The position numbers were made by a program, and so were the translations under genes. The notes under the pieces are model-generated. The model did not search any database, was not told the origin of the DNA, and saw only the letters and a program-made list of their open reading frames with translations. A DNA stretch of 64,000 nt from contig JBAXLI010000015.1 in the NCBI GenBank assembly GCA_037134895.1, positions 2,875 through 66,874 of the forward strand, written 5' to 3'. The DNA comes from Bacteroidota bacterium (lineage in GTDB: Bacteria > Bacteroidota > Bacteroidia > Bacteroidales > FEN-979). This document shows positions 9,929 to 28,715 of this stretch, in pieces; positions within the stretch are counted from its first letter, which is position 1; each line of letters begins with the position of its first letter.

Positions 9929-9983
9929 AACCAGTGTTTAAGGCGGATGAGGTGACTACTCAAAGAAACCGGGAATTCCGGAG

Positions 9984-10058
9984 TGGGATGTACTGGATTC
10001 GAACCAGTGACCTCGCGCGTGTGAGGCGCGCGCTCTGAACCGGCTGAGCTAACATCCC
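9984..10058 (-). tRNA. tRNA-Val(CAC): tRNA-Val (anticodon CAC)
   Basis: I folded the reverse complement by hand: GGGATGT-TA-GCTC-AGCCGGTTCA-GAGC-G-CGCGC-CTCACAC-GCGCG-AGGTC-ACTGG-TTCGAAT-CCAGT-ACATCCC-A. This gives 75 nt with a 7-bp acceptor stem, a canonical T-loop (TTCGAAT) and anticodon loop CT-CAC-AC. CCA is not encoded. Confidence 0.9.
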
Positions 10059-10101
10059 GGATTGAGGCAAAGATAGAAATTTCCGGGACACGGGTAAAAA
10101 G

Positions 10102-10192
10102 GTGAATGTCGAATATCGAATAAAGAATAACGAATATTGAATGAAAATAATTCAATGTTCAATGTTCAATGTTCAAAATTTGATATTCAAAG
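10102..10192. repeat. Degenerate tandem heptanucleotide array (about 13 units, core TTCAATG x3 and NCGAATA x4)
   Basis: Parsed in one 7-nt phase: gtgaatg tcgaata tcgaata aagaata acgaata ttgaatg aaaataa ttcaatg ttcaatg ttcaatg ttcaaaa tttgata ttcaaag. Confidence 0.7.
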
Positions 10193-10998: not shown

Positions 10999-11110
10999 CT
11001 TGAAACTGCTTAGGTATTCCAAATATAAGAAAAAATCGTGAATCGGTTCCTGGTTCCTGGTGCTTGGATATTGGTAAGACTCACGGCCTCCAACATCTTC
11101 TTTTTCACAA

Positions 11111-11138
11111 CATTCGTCATTCGTCATTCGTCATTCGT
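11111..11138. repeat. Perfect tandem heptamer (CATTCGT)x4
   Basis: Read directly as cattcgt cattcgt cattcgt cattcgt. It lies 41-68 nt upstream of the EF-G start codon, in the divergent intergenic region. Confidence 0.95.
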
Positions 11139-11178: not shown

Positions 11179-13245
11179 ATGGCTTTAAACAGAGTAAGAA
11201 ATATAGGGATTGCCGCTCACATCGACGCAGGCAAGACTACAGTAACAGAACGTATACTTTTTTTCACCGGCGAAACCCGTAAAATGGGAGAGGTGCATGA
11301 CGGTCAGGCAACCATGGACTTCATGAAGCAGGAACAGGAGAGAGGCATCACAATCGCATCTGCAGCTATTTCCTGCACATGGAATAATCATGCGATAAAC
11401 CTTATCGATACCCCGGGCCACGTGGATTTCACCATTGAAGTGGAGCGCTCGCTCCGCGTAATCGACGGTATGGTCGCCGTTTTCTGCGCCGTTGGAGGCG
11501 TTGAGCCCCAGAGTGAAACGGTATGGAACCAGGCCGACCGCTACCGGGTACCACGTATTGCTTTCATCAACAAGATGGATCGCGTTGGTGCCGACTTCCC
11601 TGCAGTCGTCGAACAGATGAACAAATACCTCGATGCCAATGCATTTCCTTTTCAGGTGCAGATGGGCGAAGAAGAACATTTCGACGGCATTATCGACGTG
11701 ATCGAGCGCAAGGCATACAGGTTCGAGGAAATGGAGAGGGTTGAGATCCCCATCCCCGAAGATTACAAAACAAAGGTTGAACAGGCCAGGGCAAAAGTTG
11801 TTGAAAAGGTGGCAGAATTCAACGAAGAGATCATGGAGATGTTCTTCGAAGAAAAGGACGTACCTTCAGACCTCCTGAAACGTGCTGCCCGCGAAGCTAC
11901 CCTGAAGCTGCTTATCACTCCCGTGTTCTGCGGTGCTGCATATAAAAACAAAGGCATTCAGCTTATCCTTGATGCCGTGACCGATTACCTTCCTTCCCCC
12001 ATCGACAAGGGAGCTGTCACCGGAACCGATCTTGATGATCCTGAAAAACTTCACACCTGCCATCCTTCACCCAAGGAATCTTTTTCGGCACTTGCGTTCA
12101 AACTCATCCATGACCCTTACGTCGGACAGCAGACCTTCACCCGGGTATTTTCAGGCACCCTGAGAAGCGGTATGCAGGTCTATAATTCCACCAAGAAAAA
12201 GCATGAGCGCATAGGCCGTATCATGAAGATCCATGCCAAAGAGAGGGAGGAAGTTGCCGAAGCCGGTCCGGGCGACATTGTAGCTCTTATCGGGCTCAAA
12301 CTCACTAAAACAGGGGATACCCTTTGTGCCGATGAACATCGGTTGCTGCTTGAGAACATCCATGTTCCGCCTTCAGTTATTGAATTGAAGATAACACCTG
12401 CTAAGCGTGGGGACCAGTCGAAACTCGGTGAAGCTCTTCATAAGCTGACTACCGAAGATCCTTCATTCAACGTTAGGTATGACGAGGAAACCGAAGAAAC
12501 CGTAATAGCCGGGATGGGCGAACTACACCTCGAAATAATCGTCGACCGGCTTAAACATGAATTTAAAGTCGATGCCATCGTTGGCGAGCCTTCTGTTGCA
12601 TTCCGCGAAACCATTACCATGGAAGTCGAATCCAACCACAGGCATGTAAAGCAGACCGGGGGCAAAGGTCAGTTCGCACATACCGTTATGCGCATAGAAC
12701 CGAATCCCGGCAAGGGCTTCGAATTTGTCGAACACATCAAAGGCGGTGCGATCCCTGCAGAATTTATCACTTCGGTAAGGAAAGGTCTCGAAAAGAGCCT
12801 TGAAAAAGGGATCATGGCTGGCTACCCGGTTGTAGACGTACGTGTAACCCTTCTCGACGGAAGTTTCCATGCAGTCGACTCATCCGATATGGCTTTCCAG
12901 ACCTGTGCAGCAGTAGGCTTCAAGCAGGGATTCATGAAAGCCAGTCCCATTCTTCTCGAGCCTATCATGAAGGTAGAAGTGAATACCCCCGACGAATACA
13001 TCGGCGATATCGTAGGCAACCTAAACCGCCGCCGCGGAAAGATCGAAGGCATGCGCCGCTACCGGAAAGGATCGCAGAAGATCAACGTATTTGTCCCGCT
13101 TATGGAAATGTTCGGTTATTCTAACCAGCTGCGCAATGTATCCTCGGGCCGGGCCAACTACGCTATGGAATTCTACCAGTATCAGCCGTTGCCGAAAGCA
13201 ACACAAGAGGAAATTCTGAAGAAGATTGCAGCGGAGAAGAAATAA
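11179..13245 (+). CDS. Elongation factor G family GTPase (paralog, not in an rpsL-rpsG-fusA context)
   Basis: The start is at ATG 11179 (MALNRVRNIGIAAHIDAGKTT). G motifs are AHIDAGKTT, DTPGHVDF and NKMDR. EF-G-type domains II-V continue through to ...GRANYAMEFYQYQPLP. The ORF-track extension 11038-11178 translates the heptamer repeat and is rejected. Confidence 0.9.
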   Translation: MALNRVRNIGIAAHIDAGKTTVTERILFFTGETRKMGEVHDGQATMDFMKQEQERGITIASAAISCTWNNHAINLIDTPGHVDFTIEVERSLRVIDGMVAVFCAVGGVEPQSETVWNQADRYRVPRIAFINKMDRVGADFPAVVEQMNKYLDANAFPFQVQMGEEEHFDGIIDVIERKAYRFEEMERVEIPIPEDYKTKVEQARAKVVEKVAEFNEEIMEMFFEEKDVPSDLLKRAAREATLKLLITPVFCGAAYKNKGIQLILDAVTDYLPSPIDKGAVTGTDLDDPEKLHTCHPSPKESFSALAFKLIHDPYVGQQTFTRVFSGTLRSGMQVYNSTKKKHERIGRIMKIHAKEREEVAEAGPGDIVALIGLKLTKTGDTLCADEHRLLLENIHVPPSVIELKITPAKRGDQSKLGEALHKLTTEDPSFNVRYDEETEETVIAGMGELHLEIIVDRLKHEFKVDAIVGEPSVAFRETITMEVESNHRHVKQTGGKGQFAHTVMRIEPNPGKGFEFVEHIKGGAIPAEFITSVRKGLEKSLEKGIMAGYPVVDVRVTLLDGSFHAVDSSDMAFQTCAAVGFKQGFMKASPILLEPIMKVEVNTPDEYIGDIVGNLNRRRGKIEGMRRYRKGSQKINVFVPLMEMFGYSNQLRNVSSGRANYAMEFYQYQPLPKATQEEILKKIAAEKK

Positions 13246-13284
13246 TAGTTATCCGGCATTCGTTTGGATAGAAACAAAAAACAT

Positions 13285-14307
13285 ATGCGTTACAATATAT
13301 TAGGAAACACAGGGGTCCTGGTATCAGAACTCTGTTTGGGAGCCATGACTTTTGGCGGAAGGGGTTTCTGGACCAATATCGGCAAACTTCCGCAGGAAGA
13401 AGTCACGAACCTCGTTAAGATCGCTGTTGAGAACGGCATCAATTTCATAGATACGGCGAACGTATATTCCGAAGGACTCTCAGAGATCATGCTGGGCCAG
13501 GCGCTGAAAGACCTTGGCATCAACCGACAGGATATCTTCATTGCCACCAAGGTAAGGGGACGGATGGGCGAAGGTGTAAACCAGGTAGGCTTGTCAAGGC
13601 TGCATATTCAGTACAGTGTGAATGACAGTCTGCAGAGGCTTGGCCTTGACCATATCGACCTGCTTTATATTCACGGCGTTGACCCTGCGACCTCTCTGGA
13701 AGACACCATGCGCGGACTCGAAGAGGTGGTTCAGTCGGGAAAGGTGCGTTACCTTGGCATCAGCAATCATCCTGCCTGGATGGTCGTAAAAGCCAATGCC
13801 ATCGCTTCCGCCATGGGATGGAATAAATTCGTCGCCCTTCAGAATTATTACAGTATCGCAGGCCGCGATATCGAACGGGAGATCGTTCCCATGGCTGTTT
13901 CAGAAAACCTGGGCATCATGCCATGGAGCCCACTCGCAGGAGGATTCCTTTCGGGCAAATTCACAAGGGAAACTCAAAAAGCCGGGAACAGCCGCAGGGA
14001 CGATTTCGATTTTCCGCCGGTAAATAAAGAAAAAGCCTACGATATCATTGAAGTGATGCAGGAGATTGCATCAGGGTACAATGTCAGCGTCGCAAGAATT
14101 GCTCTCGCCTGGATGCTCCGCAAGAAAGGAATTACCAGCATTATCATCGGCGCCAAAAATGAAAACCAGTTACGGGAAAACATTGCTTCAACAACATTAT
14201 CGCTGACTGCGGATGAGATGTCCCGTCTCGACGCTGTAAGTGAATTAAGCAAGGAATATCCCGGGTGGATGGTCGAACGCCAGGCGGACGGTCGCTTACC
14301 GAAGTAA
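13285..14307 (+). CDS. Aldo/keto reductase
   Basis: The start is MRYNILGNTGVLVSELCLGAMTFG, followed by GINFIDTANVYSEGLSE, the AKR active-site region ...IATKV... and LYIHGVD. The length of about 340 aa fits the family. The ORF-track TTG start at 13264 is less likely than the ATG at 13285. Confidence 0.9.
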   Translation: MRYNILGNTGVLVSELCLGAMTFGGRGFWTNIGKLPQEEVTNLVKIAVENGINFIDTANVYSEGLSEIMLGQALKDLGINRQDIFIATKVRGRMGEGVNQVGLSRLHIQYSVNDSLQRLGLDHIDLLYIHGVDPATSLEDTMRGLEEVVQSGKVRYLGISNHPAWMVVKANAIASAMGWNKFVALQNYYSIAGRDIEREIVPMAVSENLGIMPWSPLAGGFLSGKFTRETQKAGNSRRDDFDFPPVNKEKAYDIIEVMQEIASGYNVSVARIALAWMLRKKGITSIIIGAKNENQLRENIASTTLSLTADEMSRLDAVSELSKEYPGWMVERQADGRLPK

Positions 14308-14349
14308 CCGTGAGCCATGAGTCGTGAGCAGGATCACGAATCACGATTT
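14308..14349. repeat. Tandem heptamer array (CCGTGAG-like x3, then ACGAATC-like)
   Basis: ccgtgag ccatgag tcgtgag caggatc acgaatc acgattt. It starts immediately after the AKR stop codon. Confidence 0.7.
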
Positions 14350-14480: not shown

Positions 14481-14508
14481 CTCACGGCTCACGGCTCACG
14501 ATTTACGC
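14481..14508. repeat. Tandem heptamer (CTCACGG)x2 plus CTCACGA plus TTTACGC, the inverted complement of the 14308 array
   Basis: ctcacgg ctcacgg ctcacga tttacgc. The reverse complement of CTCACGG is CCGTGAG. The array overlaps the stop codon (14496-14498) and last codons of the MFS gene. Confidence 0.85.
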
Positions 14509-15650
14509 AGGCTGTACAAACCAACTCCAAACAGATATACCATACACCCGATCAGGACATAGATGCCGGCGATCACAGAACTGACGTCGGTGACCCAGCC
14601 GATTAAGAGAGGGATTACAGCTCCGCCGCTGATGGCGCTCATCATGAGGCCTGAGATTTCGTTGGTACGGTCAGGGTATCTTTCAACAGCAATCGAGAAA
14701 ACAAGGGGCCAGATATTGGCTACGAACATCCCTACAAGAAAAACAAGAACCCAGGCTGCGGCAGCCGATGGAATTGCGATCATTGCCAGCAACGCAAGAA
14801 TTCCGAGAAAGGAAGTCCCCATCAGGAATTTCCTTGACGACATTTTTGTGAGCATGATAGCGCCTGCAAAAGTTCCAAGCATACGTCCGAAGAAATAAAC
14901 GCTTCGTCCCGATTCAGCTGCAGTCTGTTCGATACCGAAATGTTTGATCAGGATCTGTCCGGAGTTTGAATTGAAACCCACGTCAACCCCGACAACAACG
15001 AAGATCGCAAGAACCATAAGGAATATAAAACCATTGCCCAGCAGGCTGAATGCCGATCCGAAGGTTACATTGACAGATTCCAGCTTCCGCTCATCCACTT
15101 TGGTCATTCCCAGCCATACTGCAGTAAGTATGGAAACAATCCCGAAGACCAGGAACAGAAGCTTCCAATCGCCGAATTTCAGGGCGAAATAACCGGCAAG
15201 AGGAGCACCTATCATGGAGCCTATGGCCTTGATAAATTGTGAAAAACTCAGGAAACTCGAAGCCCGGTTTGAAGGCACCACATCCACGATCAGGGGATTT
15301 GCCGAGACCTGAACGATGGTGTTACCAATCCCAAGCAATGCAAACCCGAAGAGTACCATAGAGAACGAGTAGATGAAGAACGGGACCAGCAATCCGCAGG
15401 CAGTTACAAGAATACCGATGTTCAGCATATTGCGTTTACCTATCCTTGCCTGCATGATGCCAACCGGGACCGAGAGCAGCAGAAACCAGAGAAAGGCTGC
15501 TGAGGGGATCAATTGTCCGAGGGTGGCGCTCAGGCTCATGTCTTTGCTTACGCGGTCAACGCCAATTCCGACCAGGTCAACGAAACTCATGACGACAAAA
15601 GCCATCAGCACCGGCAGCAGTTTGGGGATATTCACTTTTTTTGTTTCCAT
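14496..15650 (-). CDS. MFS transporter (sugar / FucP-GluP-like)
   Basis: About 12 hydrophobic helices. The N-terminal region LPVLMAFVVMSFVDLVGIGVD...IPSAAFLWFLLLSVPVGIMQARIGKR resembles sugar MFS permeases. The likely start is the ATG at 15648-15650 (METKKVNIPK). Confidence 0.7.
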   Translation of the reverse strand: METKKVNIPKLLPVLMAFVVMSFVDLVGIGVDRVSKDMSLSATLGQLIPSAAFLWFLLLSVPVGIMQARIGKRNMLNIGILVTACGLLVPFFIYSFSMVLFGFALLGIGNTIVQVSANPLIVDVVPSNRASSFLSFSQFIKAIGSMIGAPLAGYFALKFGDWKLLFLVFGIVSILTAVWLGMTKVDERKLESVNVTFGSAFSLLGNGFIFLMVLAIFVVVGVDVGFNSNSGQILIKHFGIEQTAAESGRSVYFFGRMLGTFAGAIMLTKMSSRKFLMGTSFLGILALLAMIAIPSAAAAWVLVFLVGMFVANIWPLVFSIAVERYPDRTNEISGLMMSAISGGAVIPLLIGWVTDVSSVIAGIYVLIGCMVYLFGVGLYSLRKS

Positions 15651-15709
15651 GAAATTTTTGTTAGGGTGATCAATGAATGGCAAATATATAAAACTCCACC
15701 GACAGGAAT

Positions 15710-18531: not shown

Positions 18532-19845
18532 TCACTTCAGCTTTACCGATCCTTCATACATTTGAAGTTTTACTGCAGACGCTGTATTCTCATCCCCTCC
18601 CTGGGTTACACCCAGGTATTCGAAGTCTTCGTCTTCCTTATGATATTTGATTTCCCTGAATGCCGACTTAGGATAATCGAAGCTGGTGTATTTCATTTCG
18701 GCATCAAGCTTGTAGGGGGTGCCGTATTCGAAGAGCAGCTCGAGTTCGGTATACTTGCTGTTAATACTGATCCCTGTGAATTTTTTGCCCACCTGCAGCA
18801 CGGTGATCTTGTCTTCGAAGCTGTTTAGGAAATTCAGGTTGCCGTCGAGCCGTGAAATCCTGTAGGTGCTGTAATTTGAACTGGCTTTGAGGTCCCCTGT
18901 TTGCTCACAATTGAATTTATTTTCAAAGGAAGATGTAAACACGATAGCTTTACAGGAAATGAATTCCACTGAACTGTATTTTGCCGCTATGGCGATGATG
19001 TTCCCGTTTCCGGCTTTTAACTTGCACTCAAACAGGTCAAAGGTTGACTTGTTGAAATCGGACAGGTTCAGGGTAGTGTATTTCGCCCTCACATTGAGAT
19101 CTCCATGACGTTTCACGGTGACCTTGTCTTCATAGGAATCAATATTCAGCGAACCGGCAGTACCGATTTCGTTTTCGGAATACTTTGAATCGAGCTTGAT
19201 ATTCCCTGCATGCCTCAGCGTGAGATTATTCTCGTAAAGCTTGAGGCTGATATCCTGAACAGAGTCTATTTCGGTTTTCCCGTATTTCGCGGTGATGTCC
19301 CCGCAGTTCGGAAGCTTTCCGGCTGAGAAGTCAGTCTCGTACAGGTCGAGGATGATCTTTCCGTCCAGGTCTGGCAAAGTCGCGTTTTCATAAGCCTGGG
19401 TAAGGTTCAGCGCATTGCTTTTCGGCATTGTAAGAACAAAGGAAAGATCGAGTTTAGCCAATTTTGCAGTGCTGCCGTCAAGAAAAGTGATCTTAAACTT
19501 TCCGGGGATCATCCCGTTCATCATGCTATAGAACCTGGTGTTGAATTTCACTTTGTCTCCATCCTGAACGAAGGCCATTTTTTTAATTTCCTCCAGGGCT
19601 TTCTGCACCTGTTCTTCGTCCCCGTCGACCGAGATTGAAACGTCAACTTTAACAGAGTTTTTCTCCCAGGTTTCCACCTTGAGAGCGCCGAACTTGTTCT
19701 CAAATATGATCTGTGTTTCTGGTTTGACAACCCTTTCGAAAGAATAGGTTTCTTTTCTTTCTTTTAATTCGCTGGCGGATGTCATTAAGGGGAATGCCAG
19801 GCAGCCCAGCATCAGCAGGCTATAGAATATGCTTTTCGTTTTCAT
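18532..19845 (-). CDS. Secreted beta-strand-repeat protein (DUF4097 / putative adhesin-like), third gene of the ECF sigma operon
   Basis: Signal peptide [26 protein letters not shown]. The body is long, repetitive and beta-rich. Its position after the sigma and membrane-protein genes matches the common sigma / anti-sigma / DUF4097 arrangement. Confidence 0.55.
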   Translation of the reverse strand: MKTKSIFYSLLMLGCLAFPLMTSASELKERKETYSFERVVKPETQIIFENKFGALKVETWEKNSVKVDVSISVDGDEEQVQKALEEIKKMAFVQDGDKVKFNTRFYSMMNGMIPGKFKITFLDGSTAKLAKLDLSFVLTMPKSNALNLTQAYENATLPDLDGKIILDLYETDFSAGKLPNCGDITAKYGKTEIDSVQDISLKLYENNLTLRHAGNIKLDSKYSENEIGTAGSLNIDSYEDKVTVKRHGDLNVRAKYTTLNLSDFNKSTFDLFECKLKAGNGNIIAIAAKYSSVEFISCKAIVFTSSFENKFNCEQTGDLKASSNYSTYRISRLDGNLNFLNSFEDKITVLQVGKKFTGISINSKYTELELLFEYGTPYKLDAEMKYTSFDYPKSAFREIKYHKEDEDFEYLGVTQGGDENTASAVKLQMYEGSVKLK

Positions 19846-20458
19846 ACTTTTTGTTCTTTTCGATTTCATTCAGTGTTTTTTCAATCACCCTGATCTTTAA
19901 TTCATAGCAGCGGATAATGCCTTTTAATATTTTCGGCTGGCTGCCGAGTTCATGAAGGTCGCTCATGTAAGTCTGGTACTGCTTGTCTATCTGCTCCAGT
20001 TGCTGCATCATTTCATAATAGTTGTCGCGACTGGCCCCTGATTTTTTCACCTCCTCCATTTTCTGCAATACTGTAAGCCTGAAAAAATTCTCCTCTTCTC
20101 CCAGTTGCTTCGATACATTTTGAAGTGAAAAACTGAGTTCTGAAGTCTGCCTGTGTTTTATTACCAATGTAGCGGCTACGCCGGATGATATCAGCAGAAG
20201 AATCACGGCTGCGGCGCTGAGCAAGCGGATCCTCAGCCTCCGGCTTTTATTAAGCTCTGCTGAAATCCCTTTCCAGATCTTCTCATCATCAGGAACCTCC
20301 ACATCCTGCATCCCGCATCCCGCATCCTGCATCTTGCATCCTGCATCCTGCATCCCGCATCCCGCATCCTGCATCCCGAATCCCGCATCCTGCATCTTGT
20401 ATCTTGCATCTTGTATCTTGTATCTTGCATCCAACATCTCTTCAAACTTACTTTTCAT
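19820..20458 (-). CDS. Single-pass membrane protein (putative anti-sigma factor) with a heptamer-repeat-encoded N-terminal tract
   Basis: The start overlaps the sigma gene's stop region by 11 nt. The TM segment is [22 protein letters not shown], followed by a coiled-coil-like C-terminus. Residues about 7-53 are the periodic tract ...[33 protein letters not shown], encoded by the 7-bp array. Confidence 0.6.
20301..20440. repeat. 20-unit tandem heptanucleotide array (plus strand GCATCCY/GCATCTT/GTATCTT; coding strand RGGATGC)
   Basis: Parsed unit by unit from 20301 to 20440 in a single 7-nt phase. Every unit carries ATG or ATA on the coding (minus) strand. Two ORF-track entries (19820..20458 and 20233..20445) read through it in different frames. 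Confidence 0.95.
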
Positions 20459-21005
20459 ACACCTTTTTCATTAGCGATTCCTGAAGCAGGCTTACAGCCC
20501 TCCGGTATTGAGATTTCGACGTCGACTCCGAAATCCCCAACATCCCTGCGACATCCGAATGCCTGTATCCTTCGAGAAGGTGAAGTACGCATACCACTCT
20601 TGCACCTTCGGGAAGACGCAGGATAGCCTGGTGGATCTCATCCGCCGTGATATCATCAAAAGAAAACTCCGGATCCGCAGCATCCGCCATATCCTTATCC
20701 TTATCCTCAAACTCAACGAATACCGGTTTTTGTTTTCGTATATGGTTCAGGCATTGGTTGACAACAATCCTTCTCAGCCATGCACCCAGGGTACTCTGGA
20801 AGCGAAACGAGGGAAGTTCCCTGAACATCTTCACAAAAGCCTCCTGCAGAAGGTCTTCAGCTTCGGATTTGTTCGAAACCATTCGCAAACATAGGTTGTA
20901 CATGGTACGGGAATATTGCTTGTACAAACGATACTGGGCCACACGGTCGCCCCGGATACACGATCGTATAAGTTCCTGGTTGATATCCGGGATGTTTGAC
21001 TCCAA
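20448..21005 (-). CDS. ECF-type RNA polymerase sigma-70 family factor
   Basis: 185 aa. Region 2 is [41 protein letters not shown]. Region 4 is [40 protein letters not shown]. Confidence 0.9.
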
Positions 21006-21171: not shown

Positions 21172-22374
21172 ATGAGAAAATTCACAGTTTCGTTTGCCAT
21201 GACTGGCTTGTTAATCCTGATGATGTTGACAGTTAAAAGCTTTGCTCAGTATACAACAATCGAGGGCGCAAAGGATTATATCAATGACAGACTTTCGCAC
21301 TCTATAATCCAGAAGGTTGATTCTGCCGGAACCGTGACTATCAGTGCCCCTGGTGAAAAAATTAAATTCAGATTACAGGATGTCTCCTTTAATTATAATG
21401 GTGGAAATAATGATGACCGTGTGAGGGTTTATTGTGATAATTGCATAGAGCATTATGAGCACAAAGAGCTCTCTGAAAAAACCAGCCGGCAGTCATTCCT
21501 GTGTGAATCAGAGAAAGAGGCTTATGAAGTGATCAATGCTTTCAGATATCTGAAAAAAATGACTGCCTCGAACAAAAAGGGTGTAATGACCTATGGAAAA
21601 AAATTGAAAGTTATCGATACAACATTCGGTACAAAAAGCATAGGAGAAGCCATTGATTTCATCAACGACAATCTGTCATTTTCGATGGTTATGGGCATAA
21701 ATGATGAGGGCCTTATGACAATCAATGCTCCTGATGAAGTATTCGAAATTGATTTGAGAGAAGCTGAATTCGGATATAATGATCTCGAGGATGCCTCGAA
21801 AGTGAGGATTTACGGAAATTTCTGCATTGATGTCAAGAACAATCACGGGAAGAAAGAATACCTTTCACGTAAATCATTTCAAACGCCGGGCAGGGTGAAA
21901 GCGTTTAAAGTTATAACAATTTTATACTACCTTAAATGCACTTATAACAATACGGATCCTTCGACTCTGTCCATATTAAAAAATCTTGGTAAAACCAGGA
22001 CCGAAGCTTACAAGAATACTACGGAAGCCATTGATTTTATCAATAGCCGTCTTTCTTATTCAATTATTATGGGGATCGATAACAGCGGGAATCTATCGAT
22101 TAACTCCCCCGATAATATATACGCATTTAACATTCATGATGTGAAGATGTCTAAAACAGATCACAGTAATCTGAGTACCGAATGGTTCAGCATACCGTAC
22201 AAACTTGAATATACACCTGGAGTTTTAATGGAATGCCAGGATTGTATTAAACAGTATGATGCACCAGGGACATTTCATACAATGCGTGAACAGGTATTTC
22301 AGTGTGGGAGCATGACAGAAGTGAAGGATGTGCTCAAAGCGTTTGCATATATTCAGGCCCTGGTAAAAAAGTGA
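21172..22374 (+). CDS. Secreted protein built from three copies of an unrecognised ~125-aa module
   Basis: Signal peptide ...LTVKSFAQ. The three modules start AKDYINDRLSHSIIQKVDSAGTVTISAPGE, IGEAIDFINDNLSFSMVMGINDEGLMTINAPDE and TTEAIDFINSRLSYSIIMGIDNSGNLSINSPDN. Each ends in a Cys-containing segment and an AF(R/A)Y(L/I) helix. Confidence 0.6.
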   Translation: MRKFTVSFAMTGLLILMMLTVKSFAQYTTIEGAKDYINDRLSHSIIQKVDSAGTVTISAPGEKIKFRLQDVSFNYNGGNNDDRVRVYCDNCIEHYEHKELSEKTSRQSFLCESEKEAYEVINAFRYLKKMTASNKKGVMTYGKKLKVIDTTFGTKSIGEAIDFINDNLSFSMVMGINDEGLMTINAPDEVFEIDLREAEFGYNDLEDASKVRIYGNFCIDVKNNHGKKEYLSRKSFQTPGRVKAFKVITILYYLKCTYNNTDPSTLSILKNLGKTRTEAYKNTTEAIDFINSRLSYSIIMGIDNSGNLSINSPDNIYAFNIHDVKMSKTDHSNLSTEWFSIPYKLEYTPGVLMECQDCIKQYDAPGTFHTMREQVFQCGSMTEVKDVLKAFAYIQALVKK

Positions 22375-27390: not shown

Positions 27391-27432
27391 CGTAAATCGG
27401 GCTTCGTAAATCGTGAATCGTAAATCGTAAAT
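27391..27432. repeat. Tandem heptamer array (CGTAAAT/CGTGAAT, 6 units) inside the operon spacer
   Basis: cgtaaat cgggctt cgtaaat cgtgaat cgtaaat cgtaaat. It fills most of the 51-nt gap between the TolC-like and HlyD-like genes. Confidence 0.8.
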
Positions 27433-27440
27433 AACACAGT

Positions 27441-28715
27441 ATGGTAGCTAATGACACAACCGGGATGGATAAGGTAATCGTGGAAAAACGGTGGATTAAA
27501 AAAAAATACTGGAAATACATCATTGGCGGAGGTTTGCTCCTGGCGGTCGTTCTCTTTTTTCTTTTAAGGGATTGGACCAGCACGGTAAGGGTTGAAAGGG
27601 AGAGAATCAGTATTGCTCCTGTGATCAAGGGGATTTTTAATGATTATATCACCAATGACGGGATAGCCGCTCCCATCTCCACCGTATACCTGGATGCTTA
27701 CGAGGGCGGAAAAGTAGAAGAGATCCTGCTCGAAGAAGGAACCATGCTGAAAAAGGGAGACGTTATTATCCGGCTGATGAATAACGATATCAACCTGAAC
27801 ATCCTTAATAGCGAAGCCCAGCTGGCCGAGAAATCGAATTTCCTTAGGGAAGTCAGGATACGCATGGAACAGGAAAAACATTCCCTCGAAAGGGAAGTGC
27901 TTAATGCCCGTTTTGACCTTATTGCCAAAAAAAGGACCTATGAACAGAATAAAGAGCTTTATAAAGACCAGCTGATTTCCCGGGATGAATACCTTCGTTC
28001 GGAAGAAGCCTATCAGCTGGCCGATAAAACAAAAGAGCTGGTTTATCTCAGGCAAAGGCAGGATTCTTCCTTCCGGTCCCTTCAGATTGAGCAGATCAGC
28101 GACAACCTGAAGAACATGCAGCTGAACCTGGCTCTTGTAAAACAACAGCAGGATTACCTGAATGTAAAATCCCCGGTCGATGGACAGCTTGGCAGCCTTA
28201 TGGTAGAAATCGGGCAGTCGATCCCTCGTGGTTTCCGAATCGGGCAGATCAACATCCTCACTTCCTATAAAATTGAGGCGGATGTGGATGAACATTATAT
28301 CGACAGGATAAGAACAGGACTAAGCGCCTATATTGAAAGACCGAATGACACCCTGCCTCTTGAAATTAAAAAAGTGTATCCCGAAGTCCGGAACGGCAGG
28401 TTTAAAATAGACCTTGTGTTTACAGGAAAACTTCCTGAGAACATCAGGATAGGACAGTCCTATTTTATTAAGATCAAGCTCGGACAGGCTGTCGAAGCTA
28501 TACAGATTCCCCAGGGCGGATTTTATCAGACTACCGGTGGACAATGGATTTTTGTTGTTGATAAAAGTGGTCTGTTCGCTGTTAAAAGGAACATCAAGAT
28601 CGGAAGAAAAAATCCGCAGTATTATGAAATTCTCGACGGGCTTGCTCCCGGAGAAGAGGTCATTGTTTCGGATTACACGATTTTCGGAAACAATGATAAG
28701 GTTGAATTAAAGTAA
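27441..28715 (+). CDS. HlyD-family periplasmic adaptor (membrane fusion protein)
   Basis: N-terminal TM anchor (YIIGGGLLLAVVLFFLL), a lipoyl-like segment (GGKVEEILLEEGTMLKKGDVIIRL), a long coiled-coil hairpin and a beta-barrel C-terminus (SPVDGQLGSLMVEIGQSI). Confidence 0.85.
   Translation: MVANDTTGMDKVIVEKRWIKKKYWKYIIGGGLLLAVVLFFLLRDWTSTVRVERERISIAPVIKGIFNDYITNDGIAAPISTVYLDAYEGGKVEEILLEEGTMLKKGDVIIRLMNNDINLNILNSEAQLAEKSNFLREVRIRMEQEKHSLEREVLNARFDLIAKKRTYEQNKELYKDQLISRDEYLRSEEAYQLADKTKELVYLRQRQDSSFRSLQIEQISDNLKNMQLNLALVKQQQDYLNVKSPVDGQLGSLMVEIGQSIPRGFRIGQINILTSYKIEADVDEHYIDRIRTGLSAYIERPNDTLPLEIKKVYPEVRNGRFKIDLVFTGKLPENIRIGQSYFIKIKLGQAVEAIQIPQGGFYQTTGGQWIFVVDKSGLFAVKRNIKIGRKNPQYYEILDGLAPGEEVIVSDYTIFGNNDKVELK

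Follow-up and report, generated by a model that had tools for sequence, protein, structure and literature searches.

A heptanucleotide array inside the gene of a putative anti-sigma factor of freshwater Bacteroidales: a probable case of frame-locked length polymorphism

The 64,000-nt stretch of DNA analysed here (hereafter "the window") comes from an uncultured freshwater Bacteroidales lineage (GenBank assembly GCA_037134895.1, contig JBAXLI010000015.1) and carries on its minus strand an overlapping pair of genes: the first encodes a sigma factor of the extracytoplasmic function (ECF) type, the second a 212-aa membrane protein that is a putative anti-sigma factor, and the 5' end of this second gene is occupied by a tandem array of 7-nt units. 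Repeats near the 5' end of a coding region whose unit is not a multiple of three nucleotides (3n) are as a rule interpreted as phase-variation switches, and an earlier sequence-only reading of this DNA had taken the array for one of these. Comparison with homologous loci points elsewhere: the array is probably a translated, hypermutable, frame-locked coding variable-number tandem repeat (VNTR), derived from a heptanucleotide microsatellite and specifying a disordered linker in the putative anti-sigma factor. The same architecture that suggests a switch would here amount to in-frame length polymorphism.

Read on the minus strand from the ATG at 20458, the gene opens with 18 nt (ATGAAAAGTAAGTTTGAA), followed by 20 head-to-tail 7-nt units (20440 down to 20301, 140 bp) with the consensus RGGATGC/AAGATRC; in these particulars, and in the 11-nt overlap with the sigma gene, the original description of the locus is accurate. 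The unit order is GAGATGT, TGGATGC, AAGATAC (three), AAGATGC (three), AGGATGC (six), GGGATGC (five), GGGATTC and AGGATGT. Tandem Repeats Finder (TRF) calls the array at 20302-20432 (period 7, 18.7 copies, 87% matches, indels 0, score 150), by far the top-scoring tandem repeat of the window; all 17 matches to the pattern GATGCRRGATGC with at most one mismatch lie inside it (1.2 expected). No stop codon occurs within the array in any of the three coding-strand frames. This openness had been noted and is real, but it is due to the composition of the units and not, as had been supposed, to 7 being a non-multiple of 3. The ATGs that had been pointed out in every frame are also there: 16 of the 20 units contain one, and all three frames are represented. 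The translation has a period of 7 aa (a DAGCGMQ-type tract), each 7-aa repeat corresponding to three heptamers read in all three phases. Folding of the RNA of the array region gives a minimum free energy of -36.8 kcal/mol (z = -1.34), which is not distinctive, and a promoter/terminator scan yielded nothing informative. (A G-quadruplex or Cys-redox role for the GGGATGC/DAGCGMQ tract was entertained and dropped: G-poor and Cys-free units occupy the same site in other lineages.)

Is the array translated? A protein database search returned 43 clusters of true homologues, and the repeat-free ones among these, which include the most distant members as well as many close ones, are 177 aa long. The N-terminal pattern M-x-x-[KR]-[FI]-E-[ED]-[FY]-[LI] is kept in all family members, repeat-free ones included (MKSKFEEFLE...). 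In the repeat-free members this pattern ends in E, the conserved juxtamembrane motif follows 10 residues later, and M..[FI]EE[FY][LI] precedes the P of PDDEKIW by 20 codons. In members with a repeat, it lies precisely between the two, with MKSKFEE.L upstream and the juxtamembrane motif downstream flanking the array in the same frame. Because repeat-free homologues keep the N-terminal peptide, translation starts upstream, at the ATG within the overlap with the sigma gene, and passes through the array: this much the family alignment shows. The upstream start assumed in the sequence-only reading thereby stands and the array is not a 5' untranslated region (UTR); the claim that the conserved protein begins only after the array does not stand, the 9-10 residues before it (MKSKFEEML) being conserved across the family as well. 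Nor is the tract a conserved domain of the homologues, with repeat-free members of 177 aa and other units elsewhere. The start of the gene family, which gene callers variously place at MKSKFEE, at ML, or inside the array, is now fixed. (P0007, which begins MQDD, was considered as an out-of-frame allele and rejected: the DNA of its locus, L048, has the N-terminal peptide in frame upstream, and the internal start is the gene caller's choice.)

Repeat-bearing members of the family have lengths of 177+7k (184, 191, 198, 205, 212, 219 and 226 aa). (A technical note: a protein length congruent to 177 mod 7 was rejected as sufficient proof of frame, bodies called from array-internal ATGs also falling on 163+7k. 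Because such calls give the same length series, frame was checked on the DNA, with the PDDEKIW-type motif as anchor against a readable MKSKFEE-type start.) The 27 distinct repeat-bearing N-termini carry inserts of one to seven times 7 aa (7, 14, 21, 28, 35, 42 or 49 residues), that is, 3n heptamers, the extra units in related lineages numbering 3 to 21. On the DNA, start and body share one frame in all 32 loci with both the motif and a readable start (from scans of genome and metagenome collections, and L001), and likewise in L048, L049 and L052-L054; among the distinct repeat-bearing N-termini the upstream start is in frame with the membrane body in 26 of the 27. Repeat-bearing clusters other than those looked up have one or two members each. 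Alleles with 90% or more identity to the protein of the window cover the whole ladder from +7 to +49 aa, with no step missing. The comparison of array length modulo 3 across strains and metagenome-assembled genomes, which had been proposed as a check on switching, thus finds all intact alleles to be 3n.

At the DNA level the inserts are heptamer arrays, and the units are lineage-specific: GCRGGAT in the window's lineage, CCCGGYT, CACGGTT, TCGGCAG, CACGTGM and GACGGAT/ATCAGAT in others. Two unit types are often mixed in one array in the related lineages, and different units stand at the same codon position in different lineages. The unit variants of L048 avoid the TGA that a uniform CACGTGA array would put in the reading frame. 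At the insertion site repeat-free alleles read ...GCTGGAT GTNGAG... (Leu-Asp-Val-Glu), and the arrays all begin after CTGGAT/CTTGAA-type codons and end ...GGAT GTNGAGG. Since the edges of the arrays match the repeat-free GCTGGAT site, an ancestral GCTGGAT is the likely seed.

The locus changes length between close strains. The 90% cluster of the window's protein comprises three alleles with identical bodies and 15 units (L054, L055), 18 units (the window, L001, L059) or 24 units (L052/L058, L053), each seen in at least two independent assemblies. Contigs of these strains are 99.4-99.9% identical to the window over 5-15 kb, and in the alignments indels are confined to the coding array, with -21 nt in L054 and +42 nt in L053 and L058, and to the intergenic array at 14308-14331, with -14 nt in L058. 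Copy number is therefore polymorphic among near-identical strains rather than invariant, at least at the level of assemblies, and the suspicion that this is a hypermutable slipped-strand locus is borne out; heptamer arrays are the most indel-prone sites of the genome. The register of these changes is instructive. At period 7 the coding array contains no perfect tract longer than 21 nt (3 units); at period 21 the maximum rises to 38 nt and at period 42 to 74 nt. A long tract of near-perfect heptamers on which single units might slip is lacking, and perfection over greater lengths is confined to the two higher periods. Both coding indels fall exactly in these tracts (Table 1): the units absent from L054 are ACAAGAT GCAAGAT ACAAGAT, and the 24-unit allele repeats the block GCAGGAT GCAAGAT GCAGGAT GCGGGAT GCGGGAT GCAGGAT. 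Since the indels map to the 21- and 42-nt tracts, the higher-order structure steers misalignment to in-frame steps, beyond any selection. In the intergenic array, where there is no reading frame, the step (2 units, 14 nt) is non-3n.

One allele departs from the rule. In L050 and L051, Logan contigs from two runs that agree at 100% identity, the distance from the ATG to the motif is down from 102 nt to 88 nt through loss of one 14-nt higher-order unit (CACGTGC CACGTGA); the upstream frame hits a TGA inside the array, and the body open reading frame (ORF; P0071) is called from an array-borne ATG. In the same contig the sigma gene has an in-frame 237-nt deletion, with 79 residues of regions 2-3 lost, and the membrane-protein gene has a 138-nt deletion with a change of frame, bounded by imperfect 7-nt direct repeats ATC[A/C]GGG, which truncates it at residue 106. 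Because of these two further deletions the non-3n array is read as decay: to all appearance the module is a decayed one, and its array is what relaxed selection predicts, not what switching does. Otherwise intact genes accordingly present no mixture of ON and OFF unit numbers, the sole out-of-frame allele among the 27 lying in a doubly deleted module. (Assembly collapse was considered for L050 and rejected: at 27 nt, the perfect stretch of 14-nt period could not cycle at k=31, the contig is identical in two runs, and the C-terminal one of its two other deletions has the direct repeats at its borders. The allele is treated as real, with some uncertainty.)

What does the array separate in the protein? 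In the family alignment D52, E54, P56, D57, D58, W62, G64, I65 and S66, all directly after the array, are invariant or at least 90% conserved. AlphaFold2, given the family alignment as input, builds a helix at residues 5-20, leaves residues 25-53 with a predicted local distance difference test (pLDDT) score below 50, and continues with a long helix at 58-139 that includes the hydrophobic segment 79-100, followed by a confident helical C-terminal domain. By this model, the array tract would be a disordered linker of 7-residue period between two conserved segments. The positive-inside rule, applied to the KSRRLRIR that precedes the hydrophobic stretch, would place the N-terminus in the cytoplasm.

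The array also sits in a clade inclined to repeats of this kind. Period 7 accounts for 51 of the 79 TRF arrays in the window and all fetched related loci together (592 kb), relatives without an insert in the anti-sigma-like gene included, and the window has 4 period-7 arrays of at least 3 copies where Markov shuffles predict 0.25; heptanucleotides are thus in excess both over chance and over other periods. Period-7 arrays dominate the tandem repeats of this freshwater Bacteroidales clade. Within the window, GGATGCR-type repeats occur only at 20301-20431, the other arrays being built of unrelated units. Dispersal of one unit to many loci is a feature not of the window but of L056, a contig of another organism, where it suggests a dispersed single-unit heptamer family comparable to TAACTGA/STRR. 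Weak matches in a first search place a DAGCGMQ-type tract in frame in chorismate synthase, MiaA, SDR and radical-SAM proteins and an LpxH-like phosphatase of other Bacteroidota (the proteins with such a tract are P0049, P0056, P0057, P0061, P0063, P0065, P0067 and P0068). The DNA of the LpxH-like case reads 11 copies of GATGCAG and then about 8 of AATCCCC, and three more arrays, of GGATGCA, lie between genes elsewhere on this 11.5-kb contig. Tracts inside housekeeping enzymes argue that the arrays are tolerated mutational products and not dedicated switches. Mrazek 2007, as cited in PMC4679880, ranks heptanucleotide repeats as the commonest class of long simple sequence repeat (SSR) in prokaryotes; heptamer families are found in Cyanobacteria, Beggiatoaceae and some Bacteroidetes, in-ORF copies giving 7-aa repeats (PMC4679880).

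How, then, might the array have come about, and why in steps of three? One can suppose that the heptamer GCTGGAT, spanning the ancestral Leu-Asp codons in the stretch that joins the N-terminal and juxtamembrane helices, provided the seed, and that replication slippage or unequal recombination expanded it in a clade prone to 7-nt tandem repeats. The product would be a disordered tether with a 7-residue period, whose length shifts fast between strains and whose unit sequence turns over between lineages, the changes that persist in intact alleles being multiples of 3 units (21 nt). Two contributions to the 3n rule can be offered: 1) On the side of selection, the N-terminal peptide would have to stay fused in frame to the membrane body. 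2) On the side of mutation, point-mutated units form perfect 21- and 42-nt higher-order repeats, and the best-matched misalignments are then in frame; the mapping of the observed indels onto these repeats shows this bias for 3n. Linker length itself would be mostly tolerated variation, neutral or at most modulatory.

Several points weigh against this account. Stepwise mutation does not fully account for very different units at the same codon position in different lineages. The comparisons were all made on consensus assemblies, in which a minority of frameshifted cells in a population would be invisible. The anti-sigma role of the protein and its need for the N-terminal peptide are suggested by gene order and conservation. 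The freedom of non-3n steps where the frame does not constrain them comes from a single intergenic 14-nt indel plus L050. Finally, a 7-nt unit can shift the frame by slippage, and one out-of-frame allele does exist (P0071, with an array ATG at the head of the body ORF).

The alternative that best survives accepts the frame lock and gives length a purpose: the in-frame linker would tune the clamping of the ECF sigma factor by the N-terminal and juxtamembrane helices, and rapid 21-nt steps would supply strains with heritable yet adjustable set-points of the regulon. The array does lie between two conserved cytoplasmic segments, the ladder of steps among close alleles is complete, and length variation is the fastest-evolving feature of the locus. 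However, the composition of the tract is wholly different between lineages (Cys-rich in some), which tells against a specific role; many close relatives function without an insert, and the same tract is tolerated inside unrelated enzymes, as neutral loop insertions would be. We regard such a rheostat as unlikely. A more ambitious version would make the array an evolvability device: steps of 21 and 42 nt would reset the tether between sigma-contacting segments and so provide a heritable, adjustable ECF threshold, with rare non-3n slips as an OFF or isoform state; more broadly still, GGATGCR arrays would be dispersing in freshwater Bacteroidota and colonising protein loops in frame. That is an improbable construction.

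Phase variation, the proposal of the sequence-only reading, holds that gain or loss of a single heptamer uncouples the start from the membrane body, so that the anti-sigma factor is off or internally initiated and the ECF regulon is toggled in subpopulations. Everything that recommends it is in the architecture (a 7-nt unit in the 5' coding region, stop-free frames, ATGs in all of them), in the natural out-of-frame allele of L050/L051 with its body ORF starting at an array ATG, and in precedent: frameshifting of mucA in Pseudomonas aeruginosa is a known route by which loss of an anti-sigma factor activates a regulon. The alleles speak otherwise. All intact modules, and 26 of the 27 distinct alleles, are in frame; at least 12 independent length changes are all multiples of 21 nt, which would have a probability of about (1/3)^12 if the frame were unconstrained; the units are imperfect, with at most 3 perfect in the 7-nt register; and the only out-of-frame allele co-occurs with two disabling deletions, identically in two sequencing runs. 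Neither on/off nor isoform switching by frameshift finds support in these sequences, and we think it quite unlikely that the array works in this way.

It is very improbable that the array is untranslated, a 5' leader or intercistronic spacer before a real start at or after the last unit: the window's other heptamer arrays lie between genes, in several cases just before a start codon, and gene callers sometimes took internal starts (P0007, P0014, P0074), but the peptide before the array is conserved even in distant repeat-free members, a spacer would have no reason to be 3n long in every intact allele, and the avoidance of an in-frame TGA in L048 would be equally gratuitous. Mis-assembly, to which tandem repeats are prone in short-k de Bruijn assemblies (some of the loci are Logan contigs), can hardly account for the array or its length differences: the array recurs, identical base for base, in two further assemblies (L001, GCA_005795825.1; L059, ERZ27300010) and is therefore no artefact, the 15-, 18- and 24-unit alleles come from different assemblers as well as independent assemblies, and perfect tracts of at most 74 nt (period 42) should be too short to cycle at k=141 (MEGAHIT-style k141_ names) or in a SPAdes-named contig.

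Table 1. Coordinates of the array, its higher-order repeats, the genes that surround it and related arrays (window positions unless another contig is named).
Feature	Position	Strand	Remarks
Heptamer array	20301..20440	-	20 units including degenerate edge units; core of 18 units, 20303-20428, residues 11-52
Perfect 21-nt higher-order repeat tract, 38 nt, 5' end of array	20394..20431	-	site of the 21-nt deletion in L054 and L055
Perfect 42-nt higher-order repeat tract, 74 nt, 3' end of array	20302..20375	-	site of the 42-nt duplication in L052, L053 and L058
ECF-type sigma-70 family factor, 185 aa	20448..21005	-	last 11 nt overlap the start of the array-bearing gene
212-aa single-pass membrane protein, putative anti-sigma factor, array carrier	19820..20458	-	ORF; coupled to the sigma gene
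Codons 1-10, conserved N-terminal peptide	20429..20458	-	marks the true start upstream of the array
Codons 52-69, conserved juxtamembrane helix after the array	20252..20305	-	served as frame anchor
Codons 79-100, predicted transmembrane helix	20159..20224	-	hydrophobic stretch preceded by KSRRLRIR
437-aa gene (MKTKSIF..., signal-peptide-like N-terminus)	18532..19845	-	co-directional, overlaps the end of the anti-sigma-like gene
Other heptamer arrays of the window	10104-10142, 10151-10176, 11045-11061, 11111-11138, 14308-14329, 14481-14500, 27391-27432		all intergenic, mostly abutting start/stop codons
GGATGCR arrays in L056	821-951, 1828-1934, 6397-6539, 10491-10521	both strands	four sites, one 11.5-kb contig
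Decayed copy of the whole module	L050 692-1450 (same sequence in L051)		sigma deletion, -14 nt array frameshift, C-terminal deletion

The identity of the first gene of the pair is straightforward: its product matches Pfam Sigma70_r2 (2.7e-18) and Sigma70_r4_2 (3.7e-11), scores 92.8 bits against the NCBIfam sigma70-ECF superfamily (cutoff 42.9), and consists of sigma-2 and sigma-4 domains only, as ECF-type factors do (Pfam, NCBIfam). Inside this gene a perfect hexamer repeat, TATCCT in three copies at 20690-20707, encodes KDKDKD, part of the acidic/basic linker between the sigma-2 and sigma-4 domains. The identity of the second is less obvious. The 212-aa protein has no above-threshold Pfam, NCBIfam or PDB sequence-profile match, and a Foldseek search with its AlphaFold model returned no match at E<=0.001; it carries no curated anti-sigma domain, whether of the zf-HC2/RskA type or of another family. 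The order of sigma gene and then membrane-protein gene, with overlap, is common to the 43 homologue clusters wherever the upstream gene is visible in the fetched loci, and it is this conserved overlapping gene pair, together with the single-pass topology, that makes the protein a putative anti-sigma factor. Sub-threshold Pfam traces in the family alignment are of DUF5345 (5 of 38 members, best E 0.056) and DUF3379 (1 of 38, E 0.0056), and some family members bear the JGI name 'tetrahydromethanopterin S-methyltransferase subunit G', apparently a spurious match to a transmembrane segment plus coiled coil.

The 437-aa gene that follows recurs wherever a fetched locus reaches far enough downstream: in L050, L052-L054, L058 and L059 as such, in L049 as a 426-aa counterpart, and in L048 as a 301-aa call truncated by the contig end; its product matches no Pfam family above threshold. 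In L050 the 437-aa gene is separated from the M64 peptidase gene by an inserted nucleotidyltransferase/HEPN gene pair. On the other side of the module a divergently transcribed conserved neighbour (21172-22374) encodes 400 aa with three internal repeats of about 125 aa and no recognisable family. The remaining heptamer arrays of the window are a mixed company. Those at 10104-10176, 11045-11061, 11111-11138 and 27391-27432 are built of the unrelated units GAATATC, TTCAATG, GGTTCCT, CATTCGT and TCGTAAA/CGTGAAT: four copies of CATTCGT lie about 40 nt upstream of an EF-G-like start at 11180, four of TCGTAAA end 9 nt before an ATG at 27441, and the arrays at 10104-10176 adjoin an apparent tRNA gene (about 9960-10060; a candidate by its appearance). 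The arrays at 14308-14331 (CCGTGAG-like) and 14481-14500 (CTCACGG) are reverse complements of each other, and each abuts the stop codon of a different gene, the two genes being convergent (plus strand, 13264-14307; minus strand, 14496-15683); in L058, which is 99.4% identical over 10.5 kb, the array at 14308-14331 is 2 units shorter.

The case for a frame-locked VNTR carries a caution for the prediction of contingency genes from SSRs in metagenomes: once units have become degenerate, they make up 21- and 42-nt repeats, and slippage acquires an in-frame bias. On the practical side, the array is a ready VNTR marker for typing strains of an uncultured freshwater Bacteroidales lineage, and the region between the N-terminal and juxtamembrane helices, being tolerant of insertions, offers a handle for dissecting the putative binding of sigma. 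We found no prior description in the literature of this locus or of repeat-bearing ECF anti-sigma genes. The 3n lock by way of higher-order repeats, the turnover of units at a fixed codon position and the unclassified nature of the ECF-coupled membrane protein are what distinguish the locus; they are interesting twists.

It remains to set the array among known systems. With the SSR contingency loci (the tetranucleotides of Haemophilus influenzae lic/lgtC, the CTCTT pentamers of Neisseria opa) it shares a non-3n repeat in the 5' coding region, a unit number changed by slipped-strand mispairing and a copy number that varies between close strains. There the tracts are long and perfect, and strains commonly occur in either frame, ON or OFF; here the units have degenerated (at most 3 perfect), higher-order repeats of 21 and 42 nt prevail, and intact alleles are all in frame. 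Of what defines a contingency locus, the array thus has the non-3n unit in a coding region and lacks both the long perfect tract and the ON/OFF alleles among intact genes. The mucA gene of Pseudomonas aeruginosa, whose loss releases AlgU, exemplifies the outcome that had been envisaged for the array, an anti-sigma frameshift that de-represses an ECF regulon; but mucA mutations are loss-of-function events at a short homopolymer, selected in chronic infection, whereas among the otherwise intact modules here none has a frameshifted allele. The 7-bp repeats of hmw1A/hmw2A in Haemophilus influenzae (PMC12721329) are likewise heptanucleotide SSRs of variable copy number, and they grade expression; they are untranslated (promoter/5'-UTR) and act on transcription and mRNA processing, while the array lies in the reading frame and is constrained to 3n.

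Features in common with the heptanucleotide SSR families (cyanobacterial STRR; TAACTGA, MacGregor 2015, PMC4679880) are a genome-wide excess of 7-nt repeats, mostly intergenic and often near start or stop codons, mixed-unit arrays, and occasional in-ORF copies read as 7-aa repeats (LSVISYQ there, DAGCGMQ here). The window differs in having many different units and not one dominant family, and reported in-ORF copies of TAACTGA lie mostly at ORF ends, whereas arrays in the present, conserved gene family all occupy one internal codon position. In its workings the array is like the in-frame coding VNTRs, such as the Ser-Asp region of Staphylococcus aureus ClfA and the alpha C protein repeats of group B Streptococcus: the step is 3n (21 or 42 nt), the segment is of low complexity and lies between functional parts, and polymorphism between strains is rapid and in frame. 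The differences are that the underlying unit is 7 nt and that its sequence is replaced wholesale between lineages; and ClfA and alpha C are surface adhesins, while the protein that carries the array would be a small regulator with its N-terminus in the cytoplasm.

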